Below are positions 1,067 to 49,972 of a stretch of DNA of 64,000 nt, in pieces (within the stretch, counting starts at the first letter, position 1; every line of letters starts with the position of its first letter). A model generated the notes under the pieces. The model searched no databases. It was given only the letters and a program-made list of their open reading frames with translations, and was not told where the DNA came from. Source of the DNA: Labilithrix sp. (GTDB lineage Bacteria > Myxococcota_A > Polyangia > Polyangiales > Polyangiaceae); the NCBI GenBank assembly GCA_019637155.1, contig JAHBWE010000017.1:147627-211626 (forward strand), given 5' to 3'. A program made the position numbers and the translations under genes.

Positions 1067-4000
1067 ATGCGCCTTCATTCCGCCTGCGTCGTCGCCGCTC
1101 TCGTTCTGTTCTCCGTCTTCGCCCCCGCCTGCAAGCGAGGGCCCGCGCCGTCGCTCGTCGCGAAGGGAGACACCTTCGCCGAGATGCGCGCCGTCAAAGG
1201 CGAGATCAGCGTCACCCCGCCCGGCGAGAGCAAGCGCGCCCCCTACCCGCGCGAGCGCCTGGCCGACGGCGCCGAGCTCTCCCTCGCGAGCGGCGCGCTC
1301 GCGTGGATCCGCCGCGACGCGGGATCGGTGTGGCTCGTCGCCGGGCCGGCCCAGCTCACGCTGAAAGAAGACGTCTTCAAGATGACGTCCGGGCGCGCGT
1401 TCATCGACGGCGAGGACGCGCCGCCGGTGCGCATCGACTCGCCGCGCGGCATGGTCGAGCTCGAGAACGCGCGCGCGAGCTTCGAGGTCCTCCCCGACGG
1501 GAGCGAGGACGTCTACGTGCTGCGCGGCGCCGCGCGCGCGAAGAACACGGAGCGCGGCAGCGCCGGCGAGCGCCTCACGCTCAAGGCCGACGGCTCCATC
1601 ACGCGGAGCCCCGCCGTCGCGTGGGACGACTGGACCGGCGGCCTCGCCACCGCCGACCCCGCTGCGCAGCCCGCGCCGTTCGGGCTCGGCACGGTGGGGG
1701 CGCGCCCGCCCGGCGACAAGGGCAAGCCGCGCTTCTCGCTCGTCATCGAGCGGCTCGACGTGCGCGTCACCGTCGACCACGACTTCGCGACGACCGAGGT
1801 CGATCAGACCTTCGTGAACCCGAGCTCCGACACCGTCGAGGGCATCTTCTCGTTCCGCACCCCGCCCGGCGCGGTGCTGAGCAAGTTCGGCGTCGATCGC
1901 GACGGCGACGTCGTGTGGGGCAAGGTCAAGGAGAGCGCCGCCGCGCAGCAGCAATACGAGAGCAACGTCTACCAGGGGTCGACCGAGGACCCTGCGCTGC
2001 TCGCGTGGAGCGGGCCCGGCACGTACAACGCGCGCCTCTACCCGATCCAGCCCGGCGCCAAGCGCCGCGTCGTCACGCGCTACGCGGAGTGGCTCTCGCG
2101 CCAGGGACCGAAGTCGGATCGCCGCCTCTACGTGTACCCGATGGCGGCCGAGGGCGCGCGCGGCTCGCTCCCGCGGATCGAGGAGCTGCGCGTCACGTTC
2201 GACCTCGCGAAGTCGGGCGCCTCCCGCGTGAAGGCGGGCATGAACGGGCGGACCGAAGGCAAGAGCGTCGTCATCCAGGCCTTCGACTTCGTCCCGCGCG
2301 CCGACCTCGCGGTCGAGCTCTTCGACGGCGGCGAGAGCGATCCCGTCGCGTACCGCGCGCCGCACACGCTCACCGCCGAAGACATCCCGATGAACGCCGA
2401 CTCCAAGTTCGCGGCGAAGGTGTCGAGCGAGGAGCCCGACTACCTCCTCGTCCCGCTCCGCAGCAGCGCCGCCGACGCGGTCGGGCCTTCCGCCAAAGGT
2501 GTCGATCTCGCCATCGTCGTGGATACCTCCGCCGCGACCGAGCCCGGCGCCCTCGCGATCGCGCGCTCGCTCACGTCCGCGCTGCTCGCCCACCTCGGGC
2601 CCGACGATCGCGCCGCGCTCTGGGCCGGCGACGCGACGCTCCGGCCGATCGGCGAAGGCAGCGGCGAGCTCGCCGCGGTCGACGCGAACAAGCGCCGCGA
2701 CTGGCTCGCCGGGCTCGCCGGCGTCGAGCGCGGCGGCGCGACCGACATCGGCGCGCTCCTCACCGAGGCGGCCGGAAAGCTCGACACGAAGCGCCGCGGC
2801 GCCGTGCTCTACATCGGCGACGGCCTGCCCTCCGTCGGCGAGGTCACGCCGAAGGCGATCAAGGACCGGCTCGTCCGCCTCCCGCCGACGACGCGCATCT
2901 TCGCGGCGGGAATCGGCACGCGCGCGAACGTGGCGCTCCTCGACTCGATCGCGCGCGGCGCGCCGGTCGAGACGGTCGGCGACGCCTACGCCGCCGCTCG
3001 CTCCGCGCTCCGCTTGCTCGAGGCCGCGCAGCGCGGCGGCTGGGTCGGGGCGACGGTCGATCTCGGCCCCGGGATCGAGCGCGTGCTCCCGCGCGAGCTG
3101 CCGCCCGTCGCGGCGGACGAGAGCGTGCTCGTCGTCGGCCGCATCGCCGGCCGCGTGCCCGACAAGGTCACGCTGAAGAGCGGCGACGAGAGCGCGTCGA
3201 AGTCGCTCAGCGTCGTCACGATCGAGGACACCGGCGACCTCCGCCGCCGCTGGGGCCAGGGCCGCATGCAGGAGCTCCTCGGCGAAGGCGCCGGCCGCGC
3301 GCAGCTCGTCGACATCGGGCGCCGCTTCGGGCTCGTGTCGCCGTACACGTCGCTCTACGTCCCGACGAAACGTGAGGTCGAGCGCGGCGACTCCGCCGAG
3401 CGCGAGCACGTCGCGCAGTCGCGCGCGGAGGCGATCGAGCGGCGTCGCTTCTGGCGGCCTTGGTCCCGCTCCTGGCGCTACGACGAGGCGCCGGAAGCGG
3501 TGGCCGCCTCCGCCGCCGACAACAAGGAGGGCGGCACCGGCACGCGCGCGAAGGGCGAAGAGGGCTCGATGGGCAACCCCCAGAAGAGCCGCTACGCGTC
3601 GGCGACGCAGCCCGCCGAGGACATGGCGCCCGCCGCGTCGGCCGCGGCGCCCGCCGGGATGATCGGCCTCCTCAACGCAGGCGCCGGCGGCGATCCGAAC
3701 CAAGCCCCGGCCGCGCCGCCGCCCGTCGCGACGGCGGCGCCCGCCACCGTCGACCGCGACGAACGCGCGCGCCCCGCGGCCCCGAAGGCGGCGCGGGCGC
3801 CCGCCGGCGCCGGCGATCCTCTCGGCGCGCGCGGCAACCAGTGGGCCGATCAGATCGGCGACTCCTTCGGCGCGGGGGGGCTCGGCCTCTCCGGCAGCGG
3901 CGAAGGCGGCGCGGGACGCGGCGAAGGGATCGGCCTCGGCAACATCGGCACGATCGGACACGGCGCCGGGACCGGCACGGGCCAGGGCTTCGGCGCGGGG

Positions 4001-5857
4001 CACGGCAAGCTCGGCGGCGCGCACGCGACGAAGGCGCCGGCCATTCGGCAGGGTCAGATGACGATGAAGGGCAGCCTCCCCGCCGAGGTGATCCAGCGCA
4101 TCGTGCGCCAGAACTTCGGACGCTTCCGCCTCTGCTACGAGGCCGGCCTCCAGAAGAACCCGAACCTCTCCGGCACCGTCACGACGAAGTTCACGATCGA
4201 TCGCTCCGGCGCGGTGTCGAACACGGCCGACGCCGGCTCGGACATGCCGGACAAGACCGTGGTCCAGTGCGTCGTGAAGTCGTTCTCGACGCTCTCCTTC
4301 CCCCAGCCCGACGACGGCACCGTCATCGTCTCGTACCCGCTCCAGATGACGGCCGGCGACGACGCCGCGCCGAAGCCGCAGGCCGCGAACACGACGACGA
4401 CCGTGACCGTCACCACCACCACCGGTCCGATCGGCGTCATCGGTCACACCGCGCGCCCGTGCGGCCCCGGCGCGGAGCTGCCGCTCTCGGAGCGCCGCGT
4501 CCTCTGGGGCGAGCGCCTCGCGAACGCGAGCACGTCGGCGGAGGCCGCGCTCGCGGTCTACAAGAAGGCGCTCGACGACTGCGAGGCGCCGACGTGGCGC
4601 GAGCGCACGACGCTGCTCCTCCAGATGGTGGAGCAGCTCAAGACCGTGACCGCGCGCGTCGCGCTCTGGAAGTCGCTCGTCCTCACGCCCGCGGCCGACG
4701 TGGTGTACCGCGCGATCGTCGTGCGCGTGCAGTCCGTCGCCGAGCTCCACGAGCTCCACACCGCGCTCGGCCTCGCGACGGTGGACCCCGACATGCTGAA
4801 CGGCATGCTCGCGAAGGTGAAGACGCCGGCGGAGAAGGTCGGCGTCCTCCGCGCCGCGGCGCAGAAGTGGCCCGACGATCTCGAGCTCGGGCTCCGCGTG
4901 CTCGACGCCTACGAAGACGCGGGCGACGACGCCGGATCGCGCGCCTGGGCGCGCCGCCTCCGCCGCCGCGCCGACGCGACCGCGCACGTGTGGACCAGCG
5001 TCGGCGAGCACTACCTGCGCCTCGCCGCGCGCGAGCAGGGCGCCGACGCCGAGCGCGATCGGATCGAGGGCCGCCGCACGTTCGGCGAGATCGTCGAGTT
5101 CGCGCCCGAGGACCCGGCCGCGCGGCGCCGCCTCGGCGATCTCCTCCGCGCGCACGGCTGGTACGACGAGGCGCTCCGCCAGTACATGACGCTGCAGACG
5201 CTCACGCCGGACGATCCCGCGGTGCCGCTCCTCATCGCCTCGGCGGCGCAAGGCCTCGGCCGCGTCGAGGAGGCCGTCGGCTGGGCGGAGAAGGCCGCCC
5301 AGACCGGCTCGCCCGACGGCACGAGCCCGCTCTCCCGCGCCGCGCGCGCGACCGCGCTCGCGTTCATCGCTTGGGCGCGCGAGGACGCGCTGAAGAACGG
5401 GAAGAAGGAGGACGCGGAGAAGCTCCTCGCGCGCGGCAAGCGCCTCCTCGCCGCCGGCGGCAAGGCCGGCAACGACGGCGACACCGTGCGCGTCCTCGTC
5501 TCGTGGTCGCACCCCGAGCTGCACCCGACGTTGTGGACGAACGCGCTCGGCGCGCCGATGCCCTCGCCCGACAACTTCCTGCCGTTCGGGATCTCGGAGG
5601 CGAAGCTCTCCGGCTCGCCGGCGAAGGTCGAGGTGCGGCTCGAGCCCGAAGACGCGGCCCGCGCGGCGCGCCTCGGCGCGAAGGCGATCGTCACCGTCAT
5701 CAAGGGCGCCGGCACGCCGGGCGAGACGATCGTGAAGCAGGAGCTCTCGTTCGGCACCGTCGCCGCGCCGTCGACGACGCTCGCGCTCAGCTACGACGGA
5801 TCGCTCACCGTCACGGCGCAGGTCGCGAAGCCCGAGAAGCCGGAGGCGAAGAAGTGA
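1067..5857 (+). CDS. Giant multidomain lipoprotein: FecR-like, VIT, vWA, AgmX/PglI C-terminal (TonB-C-like) domain, then TPR repeats
   Basis: The 1596-aa ORF has high GC3 and an RBS (GGAGAA) 8 nt upstream. The signal peptide carries a lipobox (FAPAC). VIT-like block: RFSLVIERLDVRVTVDHDFATTEVDQTFVNP. vWA: VDLAIVVDTSAATE...LYIGDG. TonB-C-like/AgmX-PglI motif: LPAEVIQRIVRQNFGRFRLCYEAGL...VVQCVVKSF. A TPR-like helical tail follows. Confidence 0.85.
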   Translation: MRLHSACVVAALVLFSVFAPACKRGPAPSLVAKGDTFAEMRAVKGEISVTPPGESKRAPYPRERLADGAELSLASGALAWIRRDAGSVWLVAGPAQLTLKEDVFKMTSGRAFIDGEDAPPVRIDSPRGMVELENARASFEVLPDGSEDVYVLRGAARAKNTERGSAGERLTLKADGSITRSPAVAWDDWTGGLATADPAAQPAPFGLGTVGARPPGDKGKPRFSLVIERLDVRVTVDHDFATTEVDQTFVNPSSDTVEGIFSFRTPPGAVLSKFGVDRDGDVVWGKVKESAAAQQQYESNVYQGSTEDPALLAWSGPGTYNARLYPIQPGAKRRVVTRYAEWLSRQGPKSDRRLYVYPMAAEGARGSLPRIEELRVTFDLAKSGASRVKAGMNGRTEGKSVVIQAFDFVPRADLAVELFDGGESDPVAYRAPHTLTAEDIPMNADSKFAAKVSSEEPDYLLVPLRSSAADAVGPSAKGVDLAIVVDTSAATEPGALAIARSLTSALLAHLGPDDRAALWAGDATLRPIGEGSGELAAVDANKRRDWLAGLAGVERGGATDIGALLTEAAGKLDTKRRGAVLYIGDGLPSVGEVTPKAIKDRLVRLPPTTRIFAAGIGTRANVALLDSIARGAPVETVGDAYAAARSALRLLEAAQRGGWVGATVDLGPGIERVLPRELPPVAADESVLVVGRIAGRVPDKVTLKSGDESASKSLSVVTIEDTGDLRRRWGQGRMQELLGEGAGRAQLVDIGRRFGLVSPYTSLYVPTKREVERGDSAEREHVAQSRAEAIERRRFWRPWSRSWRYDEAPEAVAASAADNKEGGTGTRAKGEEGSMGNPQKSRYASATQPAEDMAPAASAAAPAGMIGLLNAGAGGDPNQAPAAPPPVATAAPATVDRDERARPAAPKAARAPAGAGDPLGARGNQWADQIGDSFGAGGLGLSGSGEGGAGRGEGIGLGNIGTIGHGAGTGTGQGFGAGHGKLGGAHATKAPAIRQGQMTMKGSLPAEVIQRIVRQNFGRFRLCYEAGLQKNPNLSGTVTTKFTIDRSGAVSNTADAGSDMPDKTVVQCVVKSFSTLSFPQPDDGTVIVSYPLQMTAGDDAAPKPQAANTTTTVTVTTTTGPIGVIGHTARPCGPGAELPLSERRVLWGERLANASTSAEAALAVYKKALDDCEAPTWRERTTLLLQMVEQLKTVTARVALWKSLVLTPAADVVYRAIVVRVQSVAELHELHTALGLATVDPDMLNGMLAKVKTPAEKVGVLRAAAQKWPDDLELGLRVLDAYEDAGDDAGSRAWARRLRRRADATAHVWTSVGEHYLRLAAREQGADAERDRIEGRRTFGEIVEFAPEDPAARRRLGDLLRAHGWYDEALRQYMTLQTLTPDDPAVPLLIASAAQGLGRVEEAVGWAEKAAQTGSPDGTSPLSRAARATALAFIAWAREDALKNGKKEDAEKLLARGKRLLAAGGKAGNDGDTVRVLVSWSHPELHPTLWTNALGAPMPSPDNFLPFGISEAKLSGSPAKVEVRLEPEDAARAARLGAKAIVTVIKGAGTPGETIVKQELSFGTVAAPSTTLALSYDGSLTVTAQVAKPEKPEAKK

Positions 5858-8800
5858 AGCTCCGCGACCTGAAAGCAAAGCTCCGCGCGCTCCCGCAGAC
5901 GCTGCGGAGCATGACGCGCGAAGACCTGAAGCGGCACGCGCTCTCCCTCGTCCGCCCCCGCACCGCGGTCCTGCTCCTCGCGCTCCTCGCGATCACCGCC
6001 GGCGCGATCGGGCTCCGCTCGCGCGGCGGCGCCACCGCCACGATCGGCGGGCTCGAGACCACGGTCGGCGATCTCCGCTCGCTCCACGCCGACGTGAGCG
6101 TGCAAGGCAAGGCCGCCCTCGGCGACACGCGCCTCCGCGACGGCGACGACGTGAAGACCGGACCCGAGGGCCGCGCGCGGATGCGGCTCGACGACGGCAC
6201 CGTCGTCATCGTCGCGGGCGACACCGAGCTCACGCTGAAGGGCCAGAAGCTCCTCCTCGCGAAGGGTCGCCTCTTCGTCCAGGCCGGCACCTCCTCGCGG
6301 ACCGAGGTCGCGATCAAGGACGCGAGCGCGACCGTGGTGTCGAGCGCGGCGGCGTTCGACGCCGGCGACGGCAAGGGCAAGGCGAGCGTGTATTGTGCAC
6401 GTGGCGAGGTCATCGTCGCGACCGGCGGGAAGTCCACCCACGCCGCGAGCGGCGAGACCGCGACGATCGAAGGCGCGAACGTGAAGGTCGCGCCCGAGAC
6501 CGCGTTCGACGACTGGACGGGTGGGCTCGCGGTGCCGTGGTCGGGCGAGAAGGCGCCCGCGAGCGCGATCGCCGAGCTCTGGGCCGGGAGCGGCGAGACC
6601 GATCCGGGCGCGCCGCTCGTCGTGCGCTCGCAGAAGGTCAACGTCACGGTCGAGGGAGAGCTCGCGGTGACGCGGATGCGGACGAGCTACTTCAACGGCT
6701 CCGACCGCGAGCTCCGCGCCGACGTGCGGCTCGCGCTCCCCGAGGGCGCGGTCGTCTCCCGCGTCGCGCGCTGCGACGAAGGGCGCATCGAGTTCCTGGC
6801 GTCGATGGAGATCGCGAAGGACGCGGGCACGATCGCGAACGGCTCGAGCCGCCTCGAGTGGGCGGGCGGCGGCTGGCTCCGCGGCGCCCTCATGGGGATC
6901 GAGGCGGGGAAGTCCGTCGACCTCCTGATCGACTACGTCGAGTGGCTGCCGCAGAAGAACGGGCGCGCGACGTACCGCTTCCCGATGGCGAGCGAGATCG
7001 AGGCGCCGATGGTCGGCGGGCTCGAGGTCAAGGTGTCGTCGCTCGCGCCCGCGAAGTGGCTCTCCGCGAGCACCGGCGCGGCGATCGTGAACGGCGCGAT
7101 CGAGCTCCGGCGCGCCGACATCCGTCCCACCGGCGACCTCGTCGTCGAGCTCTTGCCCGCCGTCGTGAAGGCGGACGCCGCGCGCGCGTACGTCGAGCGT
7201 CCGAACGACGGCAAGGAAGACCCGTACGTCGTCGTCCGCACCGAGGTGCCCGACGTCGGCGAGAGCGGCGTCGCGCTCGCGCTCGTGGTCGACACGTCGA
7301 GCAGCGTCGGCCCCGCCCTCCTCGAGACGGAGCGCGCCGCGGTCGACGCGATCCTCGAGTCGATGGGGCCGAAGGACTCCGTCGTCGTCGTCGCGGCCGA
7401 TCAGAACGCGGTCATGGTCGGGCCCGACAAGCTCTCGCCGGTGACGACCGAGCTCCGCGCGCAGATCCGCAAGGACATGACGCAGCTCCGCTCCGGCGGC
7501 GCGTCGAACCTCGGCGTCGCGCTCGAGCGCGCGGCCGATCTCCTCGACGCCGCGGACGCGAAGACTGCGCCAGCGTCCCCTGGGAAGAACCCGGGCATGG
7601 TCGTGTACCTCGGCGACGGCCGGCCGACCGTCGGCGAGAGCACGGGGCGCGACCTCCGCCGCCGCCTCGGCCTCCGCGCGAACGGCGCGCCGCGGCTCGG
7701 CGCGCTCGCGATCGGTCAGGGCGCCGATCGCTGGTTGCTCGCGGAGCTCGTGTCGGGCGCGGGCCCCGTCTTCGACGTGCTCGATCGCCCCGACGCCGCG
7801 CGCGCGGCCTCGGCCCTCGTCGCGGAGGCGCTCGCGCCGACGATCCGCGACGTGTCGCTCGTGCTCGGCGCTACGATCGATCGCGTGTACCCGCGCGACG
7901 CGCGCGCGGTGCCGGCCGGCACCACCCTCACCGTCGCCGGCCGCCTCCGCGGCGCGCTCCCCGACAAGATCTCGATCCGCTACCGCCAGGGCACCGAGGT
8001 CGTCGAGAAGATCATCCCGCTCGAGGAGGTGAAGCTCCCGCAGGACGCGGACGTCGCGAAGCGATGGACCGCGCTCCGGATCGAGGAGACGATCTCGCGC
8101 GACGACGGCATCGAGCCCGCGATCGCGCTCGCGGCGAAGTCTCGGCTCCTCACGCCGTGGACGGTCTGGTCCTGGTACGGCGCGAGCGCGTCGACGCCGT
8201 TCGCCGACCGCATCCTCGGCCTCTCGCCGAGGACCGACGCGGCGTACGCCGGCCGCGTGCAGCCCGCGCCGCAGCCGCCGTCGCTGCTCCTCGAGCCTCC
8301 GGCGGTGTTCGACGGCGAGGCGACGATCGAGCAGGCGGCCGAGATCGCGGCGCGCCACAACCTCGAGAACAACATGTCGGCGATGGTCGCGTGCCGCGAC
8401 GCGCGCGCCTCGATCAAGCCGAGCGTGACCGGCGACCTCAAGATCGACGTGAGCGTGAACGCCGACGGCAAGGCGACGAAGGTGACGGTGACGTCGTCGC
8501 GTCCGGGCGAGGACGATCCGATCCTCGATCGCTGCATCAAGGTCGTCGTCGGCTCGATGCCGTTCTTCGACGCCGGCGTCGCGTTCAACTTCAGCCACGT
8601 CATCTCGCTCCCGCCCGCGCCGTCGTCGCGGCGCACCGAGTGCAGCGTCGCGTCGACGTTGCCGCTCGCCGTCCGCCGCGGCATCTGGCGCGCGCGCAAG
8701 GCGCGCGGACAGCTCGACTACGGCACCGCCGCGCACAGCTGCGAGCTCCCGACCTGGAGCGATCGCCGCACGCTGCTCGGGATCATGGCCCTTGGGATGA

Positions 8801-9924
8801 ACGCGCAGACGGGGACCGCGCTCGCGAAGAGCCTCTCGGCGCAGGGCGAGACCGACGCGGCCGCGTTCGTGAAGCAGGAGCTCCTCCTTCACACGTCGCT
8901 CACCGCGCTCGGCTACGAGGAGCTGCGCCGCCTCCTCATCGACGACGAGCCGAAGGTCGATCGCGCGCTCGACAAGGCGTTCCGCGCGGCGAAGAACGAC
9001 GAGGCGCGCGAGAAGGTGCTGCGCCGCTTCCTCCGCCTCGCGCCGCACTCGCCGCTCGGCCGCCGCCTCCTCCTCGGGATGCTCGAGAACAAGAACGATC
9101 GCGGCGGCCTCCTCGACGCGATCGAGCAGATCCGGAGCGACGTCTTCGCCGACGCCGGCCTCCTCGCCGAGTGCGCGTCCGCGCTCCGCCGCATCGGCGA
9201 GGACGCCGAGGGCCGCCGCGCGTTCGGCGACCTCATCGAGCGCGCGCCGCGCGATCCCTGGACGCTGGGCTACGTCGGCGATCGCCTCCGCGCGGAGGGC
9301 CTCTACGAAGACGCGGCCCTCGCGTACCTCCGCCTCGACGCGGCGATGCCGGACGATCCCGCGGTGACGCTGCGCCTCGCGCTCGCGCACGCGGGCGCGG
9401 GCCGCCTCGACGTCGCGACGCGCCTCCTCGATCGCGTCGCGCAGACGGGCGGCCGCGGCGACGACGGGCGTCTCGGCGAGCTCGCCTCGGTCGTCGCGGC
9501 CTCGCTCCTCGCGAACGCGCGCGAGGACAAACCGTCGCCCGAGACCGACGCGCTCCTCGTGCGCCGCCTCGCGCAGACGCCGCTGCCCGACGTCGCGAGC
9601 ATCATCCTCGTGCGGACCCCGCTCACCGACGACAAGGTCGAGGTGTCGATCGCGCGCAACGTGAAGGACAAGGACGAGCTGCCGGCGGACCTCGACGCCT
9701 CGGCGATGGGGCTCTCCGCGCTCCGCATCGAGCGCGGCGGCGGCACCGCGCGCATCCGCATCAAGCGCACCGGCGCGGTGAGCGCGCGCACGACGAAGGG
9801 CCTCGTCACCGCGCTCGTGCTCGGGAGCGATCGCGCGAAGGCGAAGCTCGTGACACGCGAGGTCGACATCGGCGGGACCGACAAGGGGACGGAGCTCCGC
9901 TGGACCGGGGAGGCGTTCGAATGA
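5854..9924 (+). CDS. Paralogous giant membrane-anchored protein: TM anchor, FecR-like, VIT, vWA (MIDAS DTSSS), TonB-C-like domain, then TPR
   Basis: The in-frame GTG at 5854 overlaps the upstream TGA (GTGA), with GGAGG 7 nt upstream. N-terminal TM helix: AVLLLALLAITAGAIGL. vWA: LALVVDTSSSVGP...VVYLGDGRPTVGE. TonB-C-like: GDLKIDVSVNADGKATKVTVTS...LDRCIKVVVGSMPF. TPR-like C-terminus. The domain order matches gene 1067..5857. The track ORF 3460..9924 is an upstream read-through of the same frame. Confidence 0.8.
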   Translation: MKLRDLKAKLRALPQTLRSMTREDLKRHALSLVRPRTAVLLLALLAITAGAIGLRSRGGATATIGGLETTVGDLRSLHADVSVQGKAALGDTRLRDGDDVKTGPEGRARMRLDDGTVVIVAGDTELTLKGQKLLLAKGRLFVQAGTSSRTEVAIKDASATVVSSAAAFDAGDGKGKASVYCARGEVIVATGGKSTHAASGETATIEGANVKVAPETAFDDWTGGLAVPWSGEKAPASAIAELWAGSGETDPGAPLVVRSQKVNVTVEGELAVTRMRTSYFNGSDRELRADVRLALPEGAVVSRVARCDEGRIEFLASMEIAKDAGTIANGSSRLEWAGGGWLRGALMGIEAGKSVDLLIDYVEWLPQKNGRATYRFPMASEIEAPMVGGLEVKVSSLAPAKWLSASTGAAIVNGAIELRRADIRPTGDLVVELLPAVVKADAARAYVERPNDGKEDPYVVVRTEVPDVGESGVALALVVDTSSSVGPALLETERAAVDAILESMGPKDSVVVVAADQNAVMVGPDKLSPVTTELRAQIRKDMTQLRSGGASNLGVALERAADLLDAADAKTAPASPGKNPGMVVYLGDGRPTVGESTGRDLRRRLGLRANGAPRLGALAIGQGADRWLLAELVSGAGPVFDVLDRPDAARAASALVAEALAPTIRDVSLVLGATIDRVYPRDARAVPAGTTLTVAGRLRGALPDKISIRYRQGTEVVEKIIPLEEVKLPQDADVAKRWTALRIEETISRDDGIEPAIALAAKSRLLTPWTVWSWYGASASTPFADRILGLSPRTDAAYAGRVQPAPQPPSLLLEPPAVFDGEATIEQAAEIAARHNLENNMSAMVACRDARASIKPSVTGDLKIDVSVNADGKATKVTVTSSRPGEDDPILDRCIKVVVGSMPFFDAGVAFNFSHVISLPPAPSSRRTECSVASTLPLAVRRGIWRARKARGQLDYGTAAHSCELPTWSDRRTLLGIMALGMNAQTGTALAKSLSAQGETDAAAFVKQELLLHTSLTALGYEELRRLLIDDEPKVDRALDKAFRAAKNDEAREKVLRRFLRLAPHSPLGRRLLLGMLENKNDRGGLLDAIEQIRSDVFADAGLLAECASALRRIGEDAEGRRAFGDLIERAPRDPWTLGYVGDRLRAEGLYEDAALAYLRLDAAMPDDPAVTLRLALAHAGAGRLDVATRLLDRVAQTGGRGDDGRLGELASVVAASLLANAREDKPSPETDALLVRRLAQTPLPDVASIILVRTPLTDDKVEVSIARNVKDKDELPADLDASAMGLSALRIERGGGTARIRIKRTGAVSARTTKGLVTALVLGSDRAKAKLVTREVDIGGTDKGTELRWTGEAFE

Positions 9925-10916
9925 GGAAGTCGAGGAGGCCTGGGCGCATGTCACATACGCCGGCGCCGCCGGACGTGGCCTCGGAGCCGGTGGTGGCGCC
10001 GGAGCCGGAGCCGCAGCCGCCGCCGGATTACGAAGCCGCCGCGCCGCCGCCCGAGGAGCCCGAGGCGCCGCCGCCGGAGGAGCCGGAGCCGCAGCCGTCG
10101 TACGAAGAGGAGTACGAGCAGCAGGAGCCGCCGTACGAAGGCGAGGCGTACGCCGAGGATCAGGCGCCGTACGAGGAGCCGCCGCCGGAGTACGAGACGG
10201 CGCCGATGGCGGGCCCGCCCGACGTGCTCCCGCCGCATCCGTACGATGTCGGCCCCATGACCGGACCTCCGCACCTGCTCGAGCAGATGTACGCGACGGG
10301 CCCGATGGGGGGACCGCCGCATGCGCCGATGCAGGCGCCGCCGCCGATGCAGCCGGACGGCGGGCCGTACCGCGTACCGCCGTACGATCCGACGTTCCTG
10401 CCGGCGCGCGGCGTCCCGATCCCGCGGCCGATCCTCGGCTCGGCGATCGCGGTCTACGGCGTGCTCCTCTGGTCGTTCGTTCTCGCGGGGCAGTTCGCGA
10501 CGTCGTGGTTCGGCGCGGCGCCGATGGACGAGGGGCTCGCGGTGTTCATCGTCTTCGCGTCGACGCTCATCGCGTGGGTCGTCGCGGTGCGGAGGAGCAA
10601 GAGCGCGCTGCCGCCGCCGACGCGCGCGAAGCTCGTCGGCCGCTCGCTCGGCATCGTCGCCCTCGCCTTCACGGCCTTCTTCGTCACGCTCATCGGCGCC
10701 ACGATCGCGGGCCAGATCGGCGCCCGCGATCACGACTTCGTCATCGCCTTCGGCCTCGTCACGATCGCGGTGACGGCGTCCGCGCTCGGCCCCCGCCTCG
10801 CGCACCCGCTCCGCCCCGCCCTCTCCCACGGCGCCCGCTTCGGCGTCGTCGTGATGTGGCTCGTCGGCGCCATCGCGACCTTCGTAGCGGGCGCGCAGCT
10901 CGCGACGAACGGGTAG
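9921..10916 (+). CDS. Pro/Glu/Tyr-rich membrane protein (acidic low-complexity N-terminus plus four TM helices)
   Basis: The ATG at 9921 overlaps the upstream stop (ATGA), with GGGGAGG upstream. The N-terminal ~150 aa are PEPEPQPPPDYEAAAPPPEEPE...PPYEGEAYAEDQAPYEEPPPEYE, rich in PPxY/PY motifs. The C-terminal half has four hydrophobic helices. It is co-directional and coupled with the two giant genes. Confidence 0.65.
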   Translation: MRKSRRPGRMSHTPAPPDVASEPVVAPEPEPQPPPDYEAAAPPPEEPEAPPPEEPEPQPSYEEEYEQQEPPYEGEAYAEDQAPYEEPPPEYETAPMAGPPDVLPPHPYDVGPMTGPPHLLEQMYATGPMGGPPHAPMQAPPPMQPDGGPYRVPPYDPTFLPARGVPIPRPILGSAIAVYGVLLWSFVLAGQFATSWFGAAPMDEGLAVFIVFASTLIAWVVAVRRSKSALPPPTRAKLVGRSLGIVALAFTAFFVTLIGATIAGQIGARDHDFVIAFGLVTIAVTASALGPRLAHPLRPALSHGARFGVVVMWLVGAIATFVAGAQLATNG

Positions 10917-16998: not shown

Positions 16999-17790
16999 CT
17001 ACCCCGGCCAGCGCGCGAGGACGACGCGTCGATCGACGACGACGGCGCCGTGCGTCCGCTCGTACACCGTGAGCGACGCACCTTCGCGCACGACGACCGT
17101 CGACGTCCGCGTGCCGTAGCCCATCTCCGGCATGCGGATGAACGCGGGCGAGAGCGAGCGCTCCATCTCGACGCCGACGCCGGTCGACGGCAGCGACGGA
17201 TCGGGCGCCGCGACGTCGTCCGCGAGCGCGGCGAAGAGCGCGATCGCGAGCTCGTCCGCCGCCCCCGCGCCGCGCAGCGCGGGCGCGATCCGCTCCGTCA
17301 GCGCGGTCACCTTGGGCCACGGCGTGTCGATCGACGCGTTGGAGAGGCCGTGGAGGCCGGGCCCTACCGTCGTCCGCGCCACGCCGTGGTTCGAGAGGTG
17401 CACGACCTCGGCGCCGCCGCGATCGAACGCGAGCACGTTGACCCCCGCGAAGCCGGCGCCGGTGACGTGGCGCTCGAGCGCGTCGAAGGTCGTGTCTGCG
17501 CGCAGCCAGCGCTCCACGATCTCGCCGCGCGACGGCGCGGCGGGGGCGACGACCTCGCTCGGATCGCGCACGTTCGTCACGAGCGCGATCCGCCCCGCCG
17601 CCGAGACGCCGAGCCACGTGCCGCCGCCTTGGAGGTCGCGGCCGCCGAGGATCGGCGCGTTCCCCTCCCCGACCTCGGGCGTCCACCAGTCGAGCGGCGC
17701 GGTGGGGCGCGCGTAGAATTCGTCGCGGTTCGCGGCGATGACGAGCGGGAAGCGCTCCGAGACGCCGAGCGCGAGGCCGACGAGGCACAT
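16999..17790 (-). CDS. NRDE family protein (TANGO2/DUF833-like)
   Basis: [30 protein letters not shown] is the canonical MC...NRDE N-terminus. Confidence 0.85.
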
Positions 17791-17791
17791 G

Positions 17792-18427
17792 TCAGGCGCG
17801 GCCGGCGAGCGCCTGCTTGGCGCGCGTCGTGATCGGGTGGTGGACGCCGAGCCCGAGATCGTAGGCGGCGATCGCTTGCCCGATCGCCATCTTCCAGCTC
17901 TCCCAGTCCTCGGTGTCGGCGTAGACGTCCGCGATCTTCATCCAGACGTCGCCGCTCGCGCGCGGCGGCGCCTTCATCACGAGGACGGCCATGCCGGCGC
18001 GGTAGAACGACTCGGCGGCCTCGAGATCGCCCATCGCGTGCGAGAGCAAGCCGAGCGCGACCGCGAGGCGGCCGGCGTCCTCGCCCTTCTTGTCGGCCGC
18101 CTTCGCCTCTTCGAGCGACTGCGCGAGGAGCGCGTGGAGCTCGGGCGCGGGCTCGCCGAACATCACGGTCGTGCCGTCGCTCGCGGAGGCCCACGCCCAG
18201 ATCGCGTCCTCGAGATCGACCGCCGTGTCCTCGCCGGTCCCGGGCGCGGCGCCGTGCGCGGTGAGGACGAGGGCCGGGTCTTCGCCGGCGACGACGCGGC
18301 TCGGGAAACCGCTCGTCACCGCGGCGTCGCTCGCGAGCACGGACACGTCCAGCACGCGGACGGCGGCGCCTTCGAGCGTTCCCTTCGCGAGGTAGACGAG
18401 CAGCTGGTCGCGCGGCGCTTGATCCAT
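17792..18427 (-). CDS. Hypothetical protein (helical, TPR-like C-terminus)
   Basis: I trimmed the start to the ATG at 18427. The stop abuts the NRDE start (CATGTCA), suggesting a minus-strand operon of this gene, NRDE and the GST. Confidence 0.5.
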
Positions 18428-18472
18428 GGGATTTCCGGCGAAGGTTACTCCCTTTTCTGCTATCCGCGGGGC

Positions 18473-19171
18473 ATGGGCGCACAGTGGAAGCAGAAGGGCC
18501 GCGAGGCCAGCGCGGCCGCGAAGGGCCGCGTCATGGGGAAGCTCGCGAAGGAGATCATGATCGCCGCGCGCGGCGGCCCCGATCCGACGATGAACCCGCG
18601 CCTGCGCATGGCGGTCGAGGCGGCGAAGAAAGCCTCGATGACGAAGGACACGCTCGAGCGCGCGATCAAGAAGGGCGCCGGTCTCCTCGACGAGCCGGTC
18701 AACTACGAGACCGTCGTGTACGAGGGCTTCGCTCCGCACCAGGTGCCGGTCATCGTCGAGTGCCTCACCGACAACCGGAACCGCACCGGCGCGAACGTCC
18801 GCGTCCTCTTCCGCAAGGGCCAGCTCGGCGCGGCGGGCTCGGTGTCGTGGGACTTCGCGCGCATCGGCGCGATCGAGGCGACGCCGCCGCCCGGCGGCGC
18901 CGACGCGGACGAGGCCGCGATCGAGGCGGGCGCGCAGGACCTCGAGCCGGCCGACGACGGCGCGACGCGCTTCTTCACCGAGACGGCGGACCTCGACGCG
19001 GTGAGCAAGGCGCTCACCGACCGCAAGTGGAACGTCACCTCCGCGAACCTCATCTGGAAGCCGAAGAACCCGGTCACGCTCGACGACGCGAAGCGCGCCG
19101 AGGTCGAGTCGTTCCTCGAGTCGATCGACGAAGACGACGACGTCCAGAACATCTACGTCGGCCTCGCCTGA
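18473..19171 (+). CDS. YebC/PmpR family DNA-binding transcriptional regulator
   Basis: [45 protein letters not shown] is the hallmark YebC N-terminus. I trimmed the start from the 17738 ORF. Confidence 0.9.
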
Positions 19172-47098: not shown

Positions 47099-49228
47099 TT
47101 ACTTCTTCGCTTCGGCGGCGAGCTTGGCCTTGTAGGCCTTGATCATCTCGTCCTGCTCCTGGCGCGGGACGACGGAGTACTTCGCGAACTCCATCGTGAA
47201 CGTGCCCTTGCCCTGCGTGGCAGAGCGGAGGTCGGTCGAGTAGCCGAACATCGTCGTGAGCGGGACCTCGGCGACGACGTTGACGGTGTCGCCCGCGATC
47301 GTCTCGAGGATGACGCCGCGGCGCTGGTTGACCTGACCGACGACGGCGCCCTGGAACTCGGTCGGCGCGTCGATCTCGACCTTCATGATCGGCTCGAGGA
47401 TGGTCGCGCCGGCCTTGTCGTAGGCCTCGCGGAAGCCCATCATCGCGGCGGTCTTGAAGGCCATTTCGGAGGAGTCGACGGCGTGGCTCGCGCCGTCGTT
47501 CACGCAGCAGCGGATGCCGACGACGGGGAAGCCGATGAGGCCGCCCTTCTTGATCGCCTCCTTGAAGCCCTTGTCGCACGAGGGGATGTACTCGCGCGGG
47601 ATCGCGCCGCCGACGACGTCGTCGACGAACTCGTAGGTCTCGACCGCGTCCTGCGGGAGCGGCTCGATGTAGCCCATGACCTTCGCGTACTGACCCGAGC
47701 CGCCGGTCTGCTTCTTGTGCGTGTAGTTCATGTCCGCCTTGCGCGAGATCGACTCGCGGTAGGCGACCTGCGGCTTGCCGGCGATGACCTCGCAGTTGTA
47801 CTCGCGCTTCATGCGCTCGATGTAGATGTCGAGGTGGAGCTCGCCCATGCCCGAGATGATGGTCTGCTGGGACTCTTCATCTTGATGCACGCGGAAGGTG
47901 GGGTCCTCCTTCGTGAAGCGGTTCAGCGCCTTCGAGAAGTTCGTCTCCGCGCCGCGGTCCTTCGGCGCCACCGCGAGCGAGATGACGGCGGCCGGGACGT
48001 GCATCGAGGTCAGGGTGTAGTTGACCTTGCCGTCGGTGAACGTCTCGCCCGAGCTCGCCTCGACGCCGTAGAAGGCGACGATGTCGCCGGCCTCGGCGAC
48101 CTGGATCTCCTCGCGATCGTCCGAGTGCATGCGGAACATGCGCGGGACGCGGACCTTGCGGTTCTCGTTCGAGGTGTTGAAGATCGTGTCGCCGCTCGCG
48201 ACCTTGCCCGAGTAGACGCGGAAGTACGTGAGCTGGCCGTACTTGTCCTGCTGGAGCTTGAACGCGAGGCCGACGAACGGGCCGTTCGGATCGTTCTCGA
48301 GCGCGACCTTCTCCTCGTTCTTGTCCTGGTCGTGCGCCTCGTTTTTGACCTCGGTCGGGCTCGGGAGGTAGTGGAAGACGCCGTCGAGGAGGAGCTGCAC
48401 GCCCTTGTTCTTGAAGGCGGAGCCGCACATGACCGGCGTCATCTTGAGCGCGAGGGTCGCGCGGCGGATCGCGGCGCGGATGTCCTCCACCGAGATCGGC
48501 TCCTCGGCGAGGAACTTCTCGGCGAGCGTGTCGTCGACGTCGGCGACCTTCTCGATGACGTGCTGGCGGCGCGCGTCGGCGGCGTCCTTGTACTCGGCCG
48601 GGATGTCGACCTCCTTGATGATCTCGCCGTCGTTGCCCTCGAAGAAGAAGGCCTTCATCAGGATCGGGTCGATGATGCCCTTGAACTCGTGCTCGGCGCC
48701 CATCGGGAGCTGGATCATCACCGCGTGATGACCGAGCTTCTCGCGCAGCATGTCGGCGACCTTCTCGTAGTTGGCGCCGGGGTTGTCCATCTTGTTGACG
48801 AAGGCGATGCGCGGCACGTGGTACCGCTTCATCTGCTTGTCGACGGTGATCGACTGGCTCTGGACGCCCTTGCCCGAGTCGAGGACGAGGATCGCGCCGT
48901 CGAGGACGCGGAGCGCGCGCTCGACCTCGATCGTGAAGTCGACGTGGCCTGGCGTGTCGATGATGTTGATGTTGATCGGCTCGAGCTGCTTCTGCGAGCC
49001 GGTCCAGACGCAGTACGTGGCGGCGGACTGGATCGTGATGCCCTTCTCACGCTCGAGGTCCATCGAGTCCATCTTGGCGCCGACGCCGTCCTTGCCGCGG
49101 ACCTCGTGAATCTTGTGGATGCGGCCCGTGTAGAAGAGCACGCGCTCGGTCAGCGTCGTCTTGCCGGAGTCGATATGCGCCGAGATGCCGATGTTGCGGA
49201 TTCGTTCGAGGGGGATCTTAGCGGCCAC
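47099..49228 (-). CDS. fusA: Elongation factor G (standalone paralogue)
   Basis: GTG start. G1-G5 GTPase motifs: [18 protein letters not shown]. Domains II-V with the full EF-G signature. There are no rpsL/rpsG/tuf neighbours. Confidence 0.95.
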
Positions 49229-49294: not shown

Positions 49295-49972
49295 CTAGGG
49301 CGCGGGCGGAGCGAAAATCACCGGGTAGACCACCACCACGACGCCGCCCTCCGGCTGCGGAAAGCTGAGGTTGGCGAAGCCGCGCAGCACGCACGACTGG
49401 ACCGCCTTGTCGGGGAGGTCGGTCACCGGATCGATCGTCGGGTTCGTCACCGCTCCGCTCCCGTCGATCGTGAGCTTCACCGCGATGCGCCCGGCGAGGT
49501 TGGGGTTCGAGCGGAGCCCGTTCTCGTAGCAGAGACGGAAGCGCCCGAAGTTCTGGCGCACGATGCGCTGGATGACCTCCGGCGGAAGCCGGCCCGTGAC
49601 CGTGACCGCGCCGTGGCGAAGCGTGGGCGCCTTCGTGTTCGATGGAACGGGGCCGCCCGAGCCGGTGCCGGGGATGCCGGGGTCGAGCGACGACGACGAC
49701 GATGAAGGCGCGGCTCCGCTCGACGAGTCGACGAAACCTCCCGGCGACGGCGGCGTGCAGAGCGGATCGCCGTGCGGGCACGGCAGCGCGCGCGGCTCGG
49801 CCGTCGGCTCGGGTGCGGGTGCGGGCGGCGGCGTTGACGGTGATGGTGCGGGCGATGGTGCGGGCGCGGGGGCGGGGGCGTTCGACGGCGGGACCACGAC
49901 GGCGGGCGGCGGCGGATCGCTCGCGCACGCGGCGAGGGCGGAGAGGAAGAAGGAGAGGCGCGGCGACGGCAT
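49295..49972 (-). CDS. Lipoprotein with AgmX/PglI C-terminal (TonB-C-like) domain
   Basis: Lipobox: LSFFLSALAAC. Pro/Ala/Ser-rich linker. LPPEVIQRIVRQNFGRFRLCYENGLRSNPNLAGRIAVKLTIDGSGAVTNP...VQSCVLRGF is about 70% identical to the domain in gene 1067..5857. I trimmed the start to the ATG at 49972. Confidence 0.75.
   Translation of the reverse strand: MPSPRLSFFLSALAACASDPPPPAVVVPPSNAPAPAPAPSPAPSPSTPPPAPAPEPTAEPRALPCPHGDPLCTPPSPGGFVDSSSGAAPSSSSSSLDPGIPGTGSGGPVPSNTKAPTLRHGAVTVTGRLPPEVIQRIVRQNFGRFRLCYENGLRSNPNLAGRIAVKLTIDGSGAVTNPTIDPVTDLPDKAVQSCVLRGFANLSFPQPEGGVVVVVYPVIFAPPAP

Follow-up and report, generated by a model that had tools for sequence, protein, structure and literature searches.

A 64-kb stretch of DNA from Labilithrix sp. 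(contig JAHBWE010000017.1; "the window" hereafter means this whole stretch) carries two adjacent genes, g1 and g2, whose very long products are paralogues with a common domain order: a FecR-like beta-sandwich, a vault/inter-alpha-trypsin (VIT) domain, a domain of the von Willebrand factor A type (vWA), an AgmX/PglI C-terminal domain, tetratricopeptide repeats (TPR) and a C-terminal beta-sandwich. The two proteins differ in a consistent manner, in that the MIDAS (metal ion-dependent adhesion site) of the vWA domain is intact in g2 and degenerate in g1, and this asymmetry between the g1 and g2 lines is old. A third gene, g3, follows g2. Judging from sequence comparison, the conserved unit is the g1-g2 pair rather than the triad, and g3 is a recent add-on. 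The interpretation that we favor, and hold tentatively, is that g1 and g2 form a membrane-tethered periplasmic heteromer that would bind ligands through the g2 MIDAS and through a tethered TonB-C-like domain of g1 and would act as a passive scaffold, with g3 docked on the g2 membrane helix in the Labilithrix-like subclade.

Two paralogues and their asymmetry

Because the window has a GC content of ~72%, at which long spurious open reading frames (ORFs) are common, a third-position GC (GC3) frame plot was used as the coding test. It resolved exactly three plus-strand genes in the interval under study, with GC3 of 0.9-0.99 in the expected phase. All three are also backed by hundreds of homologues, and each is 100% identical to an NCBI record of Labilithrix sp., a metagenome-assembled genome (MAG). 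The g1 stop codon and the GTG start of g2 form a GTGA overlap, with GGAGG 8 nt upstream; the g2 stop and the ATG start of g3 form an ATGA overlap, with GGGGAGG 7 nt upstream. The 4-nt overlap between g1 and g2 recurs in 13 of 13 close loci. The NCBI start of g3 is Met10 (position 9948), 27 nt downstream of the ATGA start at 9921. However, the ATGA start is found in all 8 loci that could be compared (the window and 7 related loci reaching this junction, most of the 7 having no alternative start nearby), and this conservation supports the start at 9921 over the one chosen by NCBI. The upstream neighbor of g1, a PNPOx-like gene, lies 124 bp away, and the two downstream neighbors of g3 (one of the Uma2 family and an unknown) are convergent on the minus strand; thus, the operon consists of g1, g2 and g3. 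The frame plot, the homologues and the conserved junctions therefore confirm the three genes and the two overlaps reported in an earlier note on this DNA, which had been made from the sequence alone.

In BLASTP alignments, g1 and g2 are 28% identical over g1 residues 36-761 (E 1e-41) and 27% identical over residues 991-1440 (E 7e-24); the gap between the two segments is the low-complexity linker of g1. These alignments, the Pfam and NCBIfam matches and a structural model of g2 bear out the tandem paralogy and shared domain order that the earlier note had described. Among the domains that it had named, VIT, vWA (as VWA_2), FecR and the AgmX/PglI C-terminal domain (NCBIfam NF033768, myxo_SS_tail) were recovered by profile searches, whereas Pfam TonB_C stayed below threshold. 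The N-terminal, FecR-like part of g1 has no direct Pfam match, even at E <= 10. In g2, VWA_2 matches at 40.6 bits (E 4e-10) and the DTSSS, GGAS and GDG motifs are all present, making the MIDAS complete, and the VIT domain was assigned from the model (Foldseek match to ITIH1) and from VIT matches in many g2 orthologues and distant g2-like proteins. The proposed TPR repeats would correspond to an all-helical solenoid in the g2 model, but the Pfam TPR matches in g1 and g2 are all below their cut-offs (17-18 bits); some orthologues match TPR_19 or TPR_14. For the C-terminal beta domain of both proteins there is no Pfam match even at E <= 10, and no library names it.

The AlphaFold2 (AF2) model covers g2 residues 157-1356, was computed from 136 sequences and has a mean predicted local distance difference test score (pLDDT) of 87.6 and a predicted TM-score (pTM) of 0.85. 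It comprises, in order, the end of the FecR sandwich, the VIT beta-sandwich, a Rossmann-type vWA domain, post-vWA strands and helices, an alpha-alpha-beta-beta-alpha-beta unit, ~16 stacked helices that form a solenoid of ~310 aa, and an eight-strand beta-sandwich. A Foldseek search against the PDB placed ITIH1 (6fpy) first (E 3e-22, 586 columns, target TM-score 0.60, identity ~14%); further vWA proteins and the beta chains of integrins came after it. Matches to aminopeptidase N, with root-mean-square deviations above 25 A, were dropped as an artefact of the long helical region.

The MIDAS, which the earlier note had already seen to be intact only in g2 (DTSSS versus DTSAA), reads D[TA]SAA in 117 of 117 g1 orthologues and DxSxS in 117 of 117 g2 orthologues and is thus fixed in each line. 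Distant pairs are divided in the same way: the g1 line combines DxSA[ADG] with the linker and a strong match to NF033768, and the g2 line has mostly DxSxS and a weaker C-terminal domain. The linker is specific to the g1 line, being present in distant g1-like proteins and absent from g2-like proteins. Median lengths among cluster representatives are 1350 aa for the line with the intact MIDAS and 1411 aa for the degenerate line. The curated cut-off of NF033768 is 40 bits; g1 exceeds it and is a member of this family, and distant g1-like proteins score 48-97 bits. Among g2-like proteins, the corresponding scores are 22.2 bits for the window protein, 55.3 for L018 and 35.6 for L014, with no match for L017. 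Since the two cysteines of this domain in g2 are invariant, we regard it as a homologous but divergent AgmX/PglI copy.

In total, four cysteines are invariant in 136 sequences of both lines (g1 1023/1068 and 1132/1172; g2 847/894 and 930/963). Combined with the lipobox or signal N-termini, these pairs point to two disulfides and an oxidising, extracytoplasmic location, in agreement with the envelope placement given in the earlier note. Both lines further share the signature D-W-T-G-G-[LM] at the FecR-to-VIT junction, found in ~300 of the 338 family members of full length, among them relatives with 23-25% identity. The signature falls in the sole low-confidence stretch of the g2 model; it may be the counterpart of the conserved strand with a Trp that comes after the FecR domain of anti-sigma factors.

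The AgmX/PglI domain of g1 and g2 likely has a TonB-C-like fold, an assignment made by profile comparison and marginally tested. The profile of the domain from both lines matched more than 12 solved TonB C-terminal domains in the PDB at E 3e-4 to 1e-2; nanobody matches mixed in among them were rejected as spurious. Pfam TonB_C was sub-threshold, with E 0.09 and 0.03 (the latter for g2), as was TIGR01352 in distant relatives (E 2e-4 to 8e-3). Elsewhere in the window, a small putative lipoprotein (49295-49972, minus strand), encoded directly upstream of an EF-G-like gene (47099-49228, minus strand), consists of a signal ending in ...LSALAAC, a Pro/Ala/Ser-rich linker and a terminal AgmX/PglI domain. 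The last is 61% identical over 103 aa to g1 residues 991-1092 (E 3e-32), far closer than the copy in g2. Given its occurrence in this unrelated small lipoprotein, the module of linker and TonB-C-like domain looks mobile in this genome.

The two N-termini had been described as those of a lipoprotein (g1) and of a transmembrane-anchored protein (g2). For g1, the sequence indicates a signal peptide ending in a lipobox Cys; FAPAC in the window is atypical, but the orthologues carry canonical lipoboxes of the form L/V/I-A/S-G-C, such as LAGC, IAGC or VAGC, the Cys is near-universal, and the +2 residue is mostly K or R. In Myxococcus xanthus, Lys at +2 is typical of inner-membrane lipoproteins (PMC3222651), and by this rule, extrapolated from Myxococcus to Polyangia, g1 would be an inner-membrane lipoprotein. 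The hydrophobic helix of g2 (RTAVLLLALLAITAGAIGL), which is possibly cleavable, contains neither an SHLS-type motif nor any His. The N-terminal tail that precedes it is ~35 aa long in the window, is variable and has no Pfam match; in most orthologues it amounts to a few residues.

The pair and the third gene among relatives

To assess the distribution of the pair, we ran an exhaustive HMMER search with g2 residues 40-1239. It returned 196 representatives (clustered at 50%) at E < 1e-30 and 1584 at E < 1e-3. The named family members all derive from MAGs of uncultured, Polyangia-type Myxococcota, recorded under the names Labilithrix, Polyangiaceae, Polyangiales, 'Myxococcota bacterium' or 'Deltaproteobacteria bacterium'. 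A contig scan with a single protein reached close relatives only, 13 MAG loci with no cultured organism among them, and ten further loci, at 53, 46, 45, 44, 42, 37, 33, 31, 25 and 23% identity to g2, bring the total to 23. A g1-like and a g2-like gene are adjacent in every locus examined (23/23), from 77% to 23% identity, and their start and stop codons overlap in 20 of the 23.

By contrast, homologues of g3 follow g2 only in relatives at least 53% identical to g2 (the Labilithrix-like subclade), so that the neighborhoods keep the pair and not the triad whose conservation the earlier note had suggested checking. Seven loci at 23-46% identity retain the pair without g3, and in two others (37% and 42%) g2 is followed by a different membrane protein with no significant similarity to g3. 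Below 53%, the next gene is rplU (twice), a gene for an RGI lyase, a DUF6662 protein, a methyltransferase or a coiled-coil protein, one of two unrelated membrane protein genes, or nothing at all (convergent genes). Where present, g3 is always ATGA-coupled to g2, and it is found only where g2 has a helix instead of a lipobox.

The third genes of L017 (13989-15257) and L024 (5012-6274), which encode membrane proteins of ~420 aa directly after transmembrane-anchored g2-like proteins, were rejected as g3 homologues, their similarity to g3 being absent or non-significant; they are also unrelated to each other. The L017 protein has an acidic, Pro-rich N-tail, and the L024 protein gives a weak, non-significant alignment with g3 helices 2-4 (hhalign probability 12%). 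In L021 the third gene encodes a soluble coiled-coil protein, and in L019 it encodes the DUF6662 protein, whose sequence, by eye, looks like an outer-membrane beta-barrel.

The g3 protein had been taken for a four-helix membrane protein; hydropathy, conservation and modelling indicate five hydrophobic helices instead. Lys and Arg are enriched in its loops 2-3 and 4-5 and in the stretch ahead of helix 1, and by the positive-inside rule this distribution predicts an N-in, C-out topology, with the proline-rich tail in the cytoplasm. The acidic N-terminal tract with PPxY/PY motifs is indeed present in the window, but of the 14 orthologues only 6 have a Tyr-rich acidic PY tract, and the hypervariable tail spans anything from 10 to 160 aa. 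What is invariant among the g3 orthologues is a P-Y-R motif just before helix 1. The membrane core has no Pfam match, even at E <= 10, and a word-indexed protein search with g3 gave 7 proteins, dominated by the proline-rich tail. Pfam scans of g1, g2 and g3 detected no FHA, ZnR or GYF domain. With the g3 tail predicted to be cytoplasmic and no GYF domain in the periplasmic g1 and g2, the contact between a GYF domain and the proline-rich tail envisaged in the earlier note has no basis.

The deepest g2-like proteins carry lipoboxes with varied +2 residues and no membrane helix, so that both paralogues are lipoproteins there. The ancestral pair thus consisted of two lipoproteins, and the membrane helix of g2 is derived. 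In lineages without g3, the transmembrane-anchored g2-like proteins P0255, P0263, P0272 and P0274 (37-45% identity), together with that of L020, have a cytoplasmic N-terminal VVTRGxxxDVAEWV sequence followed by Pro- or acid-rich disorder, and P0262, P0267 and P0271 have very proline-rich tails. Since proline-rich tails occur in g2-like proteins without g3, a cytoplasmic tail recurs in the family but is not the ancestral condition. The sequences suggest that the function of the cytoplasmic tail has shifted between g2 and a gene of its own.

These tails bear on the idea that the operon encodes a FecR-type trans-envelope sensor, in which the periplasmic part would sense a signal and relay it to a regulator in the cytoplasm by way of the g2 helix and g3. 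The FecR domain directly after the membrane anchor recalls FecR-type anti-sigma factors, the VVTRGxxxDVAEWV sequence with its Pro-rich cytoplasmic tail recurs in g2-like proteins elsewhere, g3 supplies a tail of this kind, and in L022 a gene for an extracytoplasmic function (ECF) sigma factor lies two genes downstream. However, no anti-sigma domain was detected in these proteins, and no sigma factor gene adjoins the operon in the window or the pair in the other loci. Moreover, the cytoplasmic tail of g2 is reduced to a few residues in most orthologues, that of g3 is hypervariable, and two lipoproteins, the ancestral state, have no cytoplasmic part. We consider such a sensor quite unlikely.

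Several loci show features of their own. In L014 (10001-15876) and L015 (1619-7490), both at 23-25% identity, the pair lies immediately upstream of rplU-rpmA-obgE on the same strand, and in L020 it is convergent with rodA-pbp2-mreD-mreC. The g1 orthologue of L008 (707-5449) has an in-frame stop at codon 714, and that of L010 (9641-12377) is broken into fragments, showing frame changes as well as a large deletion inside the gene; such lesions are either MAG assembly errors or decay of g1 in some lineages.

A proposed tethered heteromer and the alternatives

Conserved co-translation combined with complementary decay is the usual pattern of obligate heteromers. This pattern, the self-association of ITIH1 (PMC7170535) and the docking described for the Glt proteins (PMC11761067) together lead us to propose a g1-g2 heteromer. 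The pair goes back to an ancient duplication and has been retained in Polyangia-type Myxococcota as two translationally coupled genes. In each subunit, the FecR-like sandwich by the anchor is followed by a VIT-vWA head of the ITIH/integrin-beta-like kind, then by a TonB-C-like domain with its disulfide, the TPR solenoid and the beta-sandwich at the end; these last two bodies would serve as a scaffold. The g2 MIDAS would bind an acidic ligand side chain via a divalent cation, and the ligand could be g1 itself, as in ITIH1 self-association, or a third envelope protein. The g1 subunit, its MIDAS lost, would use the TonB-C-like domain on the ~220-aa linker to take hold of a beta-strand in a partner protein that lies farther outward in the envelope. 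The complex as a whole would be a passive binding and tethering scaffold rather than a motor-driven transducer. In the Labilithrix-like subclade, a membrane helix replaced the lipid anchor of g2 and g3 joined the operon; its product, an inner-membrane protein of five helices whose cytoplasmic tail is disordered and rich in proline, is probably docked on the helix of g2. The genes, their domains and paralogy, the conserved adjacency with its coupling, the MIDAS asymmetry and the extracytoplasmic signals are shown by the sequences; we infer complex formation, the ligands of the MIDAS and of the TonB-C-like domain, the inner-membrane location and the g2-g3 contact.

Alternatively, g1 and g2 might be independent paralogues, that is, redundant or diverged periplasmic binding proteins whose gene overlap reflects a compact operon only. 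The g2 model is that of a self-contained, compact monomer (pTM 0.85), and the interface between g1 and g2 is a hypothetical one. Yet the two genes remain neighbors in relatives as distant as 23% identity, mostly with overlapping start and stop codons, and their losses are complementary, g1 having lost the MIDAS and g2 the linker along with a canonical C-terminal domain, as is typical of obligate heteromers. Independence of the two proteins thus appears improbable.

Several points weigh against the heteromer, or against parts of it. The binding of g1 and g2 to each other is deduced from the above pattern and precedents, and the high pTM of g2 alone shows that this protein can adopt a compact monomeric fold. 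The inner-membrane location follows the Myxococcus +2 rule, and the lipoproteins of deep relatives that have a different +2 residue could instead reside in the outer membrane or at the surface. For g2, the N-terminus could be removed as a signal peptide instead of serving as an anchor. The MIDAS is degenerate in one distant g2-like protein (L018, DLSAG), transmembrane-anchored g2-like proteins without g3 exist (L020 and L023), and the AlphaFold model of g3 is poor (pLDDT 58.5). Finally, genome context gives no functional clue, the neighbors differing in almost every locus.

The uncertainty of location leads to another possibility, namely that the two proteins are outer-membrane or surface adhesins similar to CglB, whose binding target would be the substratum or prey and not a partner inside the envelope. 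The intact MIDAS of the g2 vWA domain would suit this role, both subunits are lipoproteins with varied +2 residues in deep relatives, VIT-vWA proteins of other bacteria are surface-sorted (partial matches to TIGR03788 and XrtN-target models), and CglB itself, a vWA lipoprotein, provides a precedent (PMC9946355). In the clade considered here, however, g2 has a helix in place of a lipobox, its gene is coupled to that of a polytopic protein of the inner membrane, the +2 residue of g1 is mostly K or R (PMC3222651), and the scans revealed no LPXTG, PEP-CTERM or MYXO-CTERM tag. A surface adhesin is therefore unlikely, if somewhat less so than the sensor or the independent paralogues.

The earlier note had also considered energy transduction. 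In a motor-coupled force transducer or gliding-related module, g1 and g2 would play the part of GltG/GltJ, TonB or TolA, transmitting movement driven by the proton-motive force from an inner-membrane motor to the outer envelope. The match of the Pro/Gly/Ala linker and AgmX/PglI domain of g1 to the C-terminal 170 positions of the GltG model is compatible with this role, as are the TonB-C-like character of the domain, the inner membrane-tethered vWA 'force transducers' proposed in other phyla (PMC12204202) and the cytoplasmic tails of the transmembrane-anchored g2 lines. However, the 38 other window ORFs scanned are unrelated housekeeping genes that include no Tol-, Exb-, Mot-, Agl- or Glt-like gene. 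More specifically, no MotA/ExbB/TolQ- or ExbD-like gene and no motor gene of the ExbBD/TolQR/AglRQS type occurs among the window ORFs scanned or flanks the pair in 10 other loci, although a motor could be encoded elsewhere in the genome. A TonB/TolA-type protein has an N-terminal helix with an SHLS-type motif; the g2 helix lacks this motif and any His, and g1 is anchored as a lipoprotein. Both subunits are lipid-anchored in the deepest relatives, leaving no helix for a motor to engage, and the GltG and GltJ equivalog cut-offs are missed widely, with none of the FHA, ZnR and GYF domains present. The missing motor genes, the helix without an SHLS-type motif and the lipid-anchored ancestors make a motor-driven mechanism unlikely, and of all the alternatives this one is to us the least credible.

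A bolder reading than the passive heteromer would make the pair the bacterial counterpart of integrin-like heterodimers, an asymmetric receptor of two periplasmic subunits, one having a live MIDAS and the other a dead one, wired to the cytoplasm in the Labilithrix clade via the g2 helix and the proline-rich tail of g3. Although this seems doubtful and we give it little weight, Polyangia would, if it were true, possess a previously unknown trans-envelope machine for adhesion or signalling, independent of the Agl-Glt and Ton/Tol motors. More generally, this is a large family, conserved as a co-translated pair and without a literature, which could uncover a new part of the cell envelope of myxobacteria. 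In it, an ITIH/integrin-like MIDAS head is fused to a pairing of TonB-C-like domain and TPR that is formed by separate proteins in the Glt gliding model, and because of this fusion the family could show what role an AgmX/PglI-type domain plays without a motor. The complementary decay of g1 and g2 also offers a clean case for the evolution of obligate heteromers.

The coordinates of all features are given in Table 1. Outside the operon, a plus-strand window ORF (17738-19168) has a YebC/TACO1 domain at residues 251-474 and ~250 residues before the domain; it is probably an over-long ORF call.

Table 1. Genes, domains and motifs of the g1-g2-g3 operon, in window positions (aa, residues of the respective protein).
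Feature	Position	Strand	Details and basis
g1	1067-5857	+	1596 aa; frame plot, translation; NCBI name 'AgmX/PglI C-terminal domain-containing protein [Labilithrix sp.]' (P0001, 100%)
g1 lipobox region FAPAC-KR (Cys22, +2 Lys)	1118-1138	+	atypical lipobox
g1 FecR-like beta-sandwich, aa ~36-200	1172-1666	+	homology: g1 36-200 aligns with g2 70-228 (BLASTP)
g1 DWTGGL signature, aa 188-193	1628-1645	+	family motif
g1 VIT domain, aa 228-339	1748-2083	+	Pfam PF08487, E 1e-21, 77.6 bits
g1 vWA domain, aa ~478-660	2498-3046	+	alignment to g2 vWA; some g1 orthologues match VWA_2 or VWA_3
g1 degenerate MIDAS DTSAA	2522-2536	+	within g1 vWA
g1 Ala/Gly/Pro-rich low-complexity linker, aa ~770-990	3374-4036	+	A47 G42 P16 of 221 residues; absent from g2
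g1 AgmX/PglI C-terminal (TonB-C-like) domain, aa 1006-1094, Cys1023 and Cys1068	4082-4348	+	NF033768, 88.3 bits
g1 TPR-like solenoid (aa ~1130-1450, Cys1132, Cys1172) and C-terminal beta domain (aa ~1460-1590)	4454-5836	+	BLASTP to g2 C-terminal half; weak TPR_19; homology to g2 model
g2	5854-9924	+	1356 aa; same length in NCBI: 'VWA domain-containing protein [Labilithrix sp.]' (P0128, 100%)
g2 N-terminal hydrophobic helix, aa ~37-55	5962-6018	+	signal-anchor or possibly cleavable signal peptide
g2 FecR domain, aa 98-186	6145-6411	+	Pfam PF04773, E 7e-8, 33.2 bits, cut-off 24
g2 DWTGGL copy, aa 220-225	6511-6528	+	family motif
g2 ITIH-like module: VIT beta-sandwich aa ~241-464, vWA ~474-660, post-vWA strands/helices ~663-765	6574-8150	+	AF2 model, Foldseek, VWA_2
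g2 MIDAS DTSSS	7291-7305	+	intact
g2 divergent AgmX/PglI (TonB-C-like) domain, aa 825-918, Cys847 and Cys894	8326-8607	+	model: alpha-alpha-beta-beta-alpha-beta unit
g2 TPR-like helical solenoid (aa ~932-1241, Cys930, Cys963) and 8-strand C-terminal beta-sandwich (aa ~1247-1350)	8647-9903	+	AF2, pLDDT ~90; weak TPR
g3	9921-10916	+	331 aa; predicted inner-membrane protein
g3 parts: Pro/Glu/Tyr-rich tail aa 1-146; P-Y-R motif nt 10365-10373; five transmembrane helices aa ~172-328	9921-10916	+	hydropathy, conservation, model

Relation to described envelope proteins

In the literature we found no description of this paired FecR-VIT-vWA-AgmX/PglI-TPR architecture, in line with the earlier note. The architecture is undescribed but built from known domains, and the proteins are annotated but uncharacterised; this is not evidence of a new mechanism.

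The affinity to the Agl-Glt gliding machinery proposed in the earlier note comes down to one common mobile module, the disordered linker with the AgmX/PglI domain, and extends no further. Like GltG (PglI) and GltJ (AgmX), g1 has a disulfide-containing AgmX/PglI C-terminal domain behind a disordered periplasmic linker. In an AlphaFold-based model of the Glt machinery, a TPR protein is the docking site for this kind of C-terminal domain, which also accepts a beta-strand of GltF (PMC11761067), whereas the TonB-C-like domain of g1 and g2 is internal and fused to its own TPR. The N-terminal 800 aa of g1 and g2 (FecR-VIT-vWA) have no counterpart in GltG or GltJ. Against the GltG equivalog NF033760, g1 scores 128.5 bits (E 3e-37), compared with a cut-off of 650, and the match is confined to model positions 470-643 (the C-terminal ~170); g1 is thus not a GltG equivalog. 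No window protein matches the GltJ equivalog NF033761 (cut-off 450) at E <= 0.01. Furthermore, g1-g3 do not lie in a glt/agl cluster, and no such genes are among the window ORFs scanned.

The inner membrane-tethered vWA 'force transducers' with a YfbK-like C-terminal domain that were proposed in other phyla (PMC12204202) are, like g1 and g2, envelope proteins with a membrane anchor and a periplasmic vWA domain. However, they have a TonB-like SHLS helix, a motor box and adjacent ExbBD-like genes, none of which is found at g1 and g2. FecR anti-sigma factors and FecR lipoproteins (e.g., LipL45) share with g2 the FecR beta-sandwich directly after the membrane anchor; g2 has the FecR periplasmic domain and gives weak matches to the LipL45 and Lsa33 models. 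Unlike the anti-sigma factors, it has no anti-sigma domain and no adjoining ECF sigma or TonB-dependent transducer gene, and ~1100 more residues follow its FecR domain. The sorted VIT-vWA surface proteins (marine sortase target TIGR03788; XrtN, PEP-CTERM) have the VIT and vWA order in common with g1 and g2, with partial matches at E 1e-10 to 1e-26. However, the scores are far below the cut-offs, the anchors of g1 and g2 are N-terminal, and Pfam and NCBIfam scans of g1-g3 found no C-terminal sorting signal of the LPXTG, PEP-CTERM or MYXO-CTERM type.

Of the known systems, ITIH-like VIT-vWA modules such as that of ITIH1 (6FPY), together with integrin beta-like ones, come closest, having the same fold in another context; GltG and GltJ rank next, ahead of the vWA force transducers and the FecR anti-sigma factors. 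With the VIT domain (PF08487) g1 and g2 belong among the VIT-vWA (ITIH-like) proteins, the complete MIDAS being found in g2 only and not in g1. Unlike ITIH1, they are bacterial, are predicted to be membrane-tethered in the periplasm, are flanked by a FecR-like domain and by the TonB-C-like/TPR/beta-sandwich extension, form an asymmetric paralogue pair with one dead MIDAS and are without the C-terminal transesterification chemistry of ITIH proteins. Like g2, ITIH1 combines a VIT beta-sandwich, a vWA domain with a MIDAS, and post-vWA strands and helices. ITIH1 forms Mg2+- and MIDAS-dependent dimers (PMC7170535), and the binding that we propose for g2 would likewise depend on its MIDAS.

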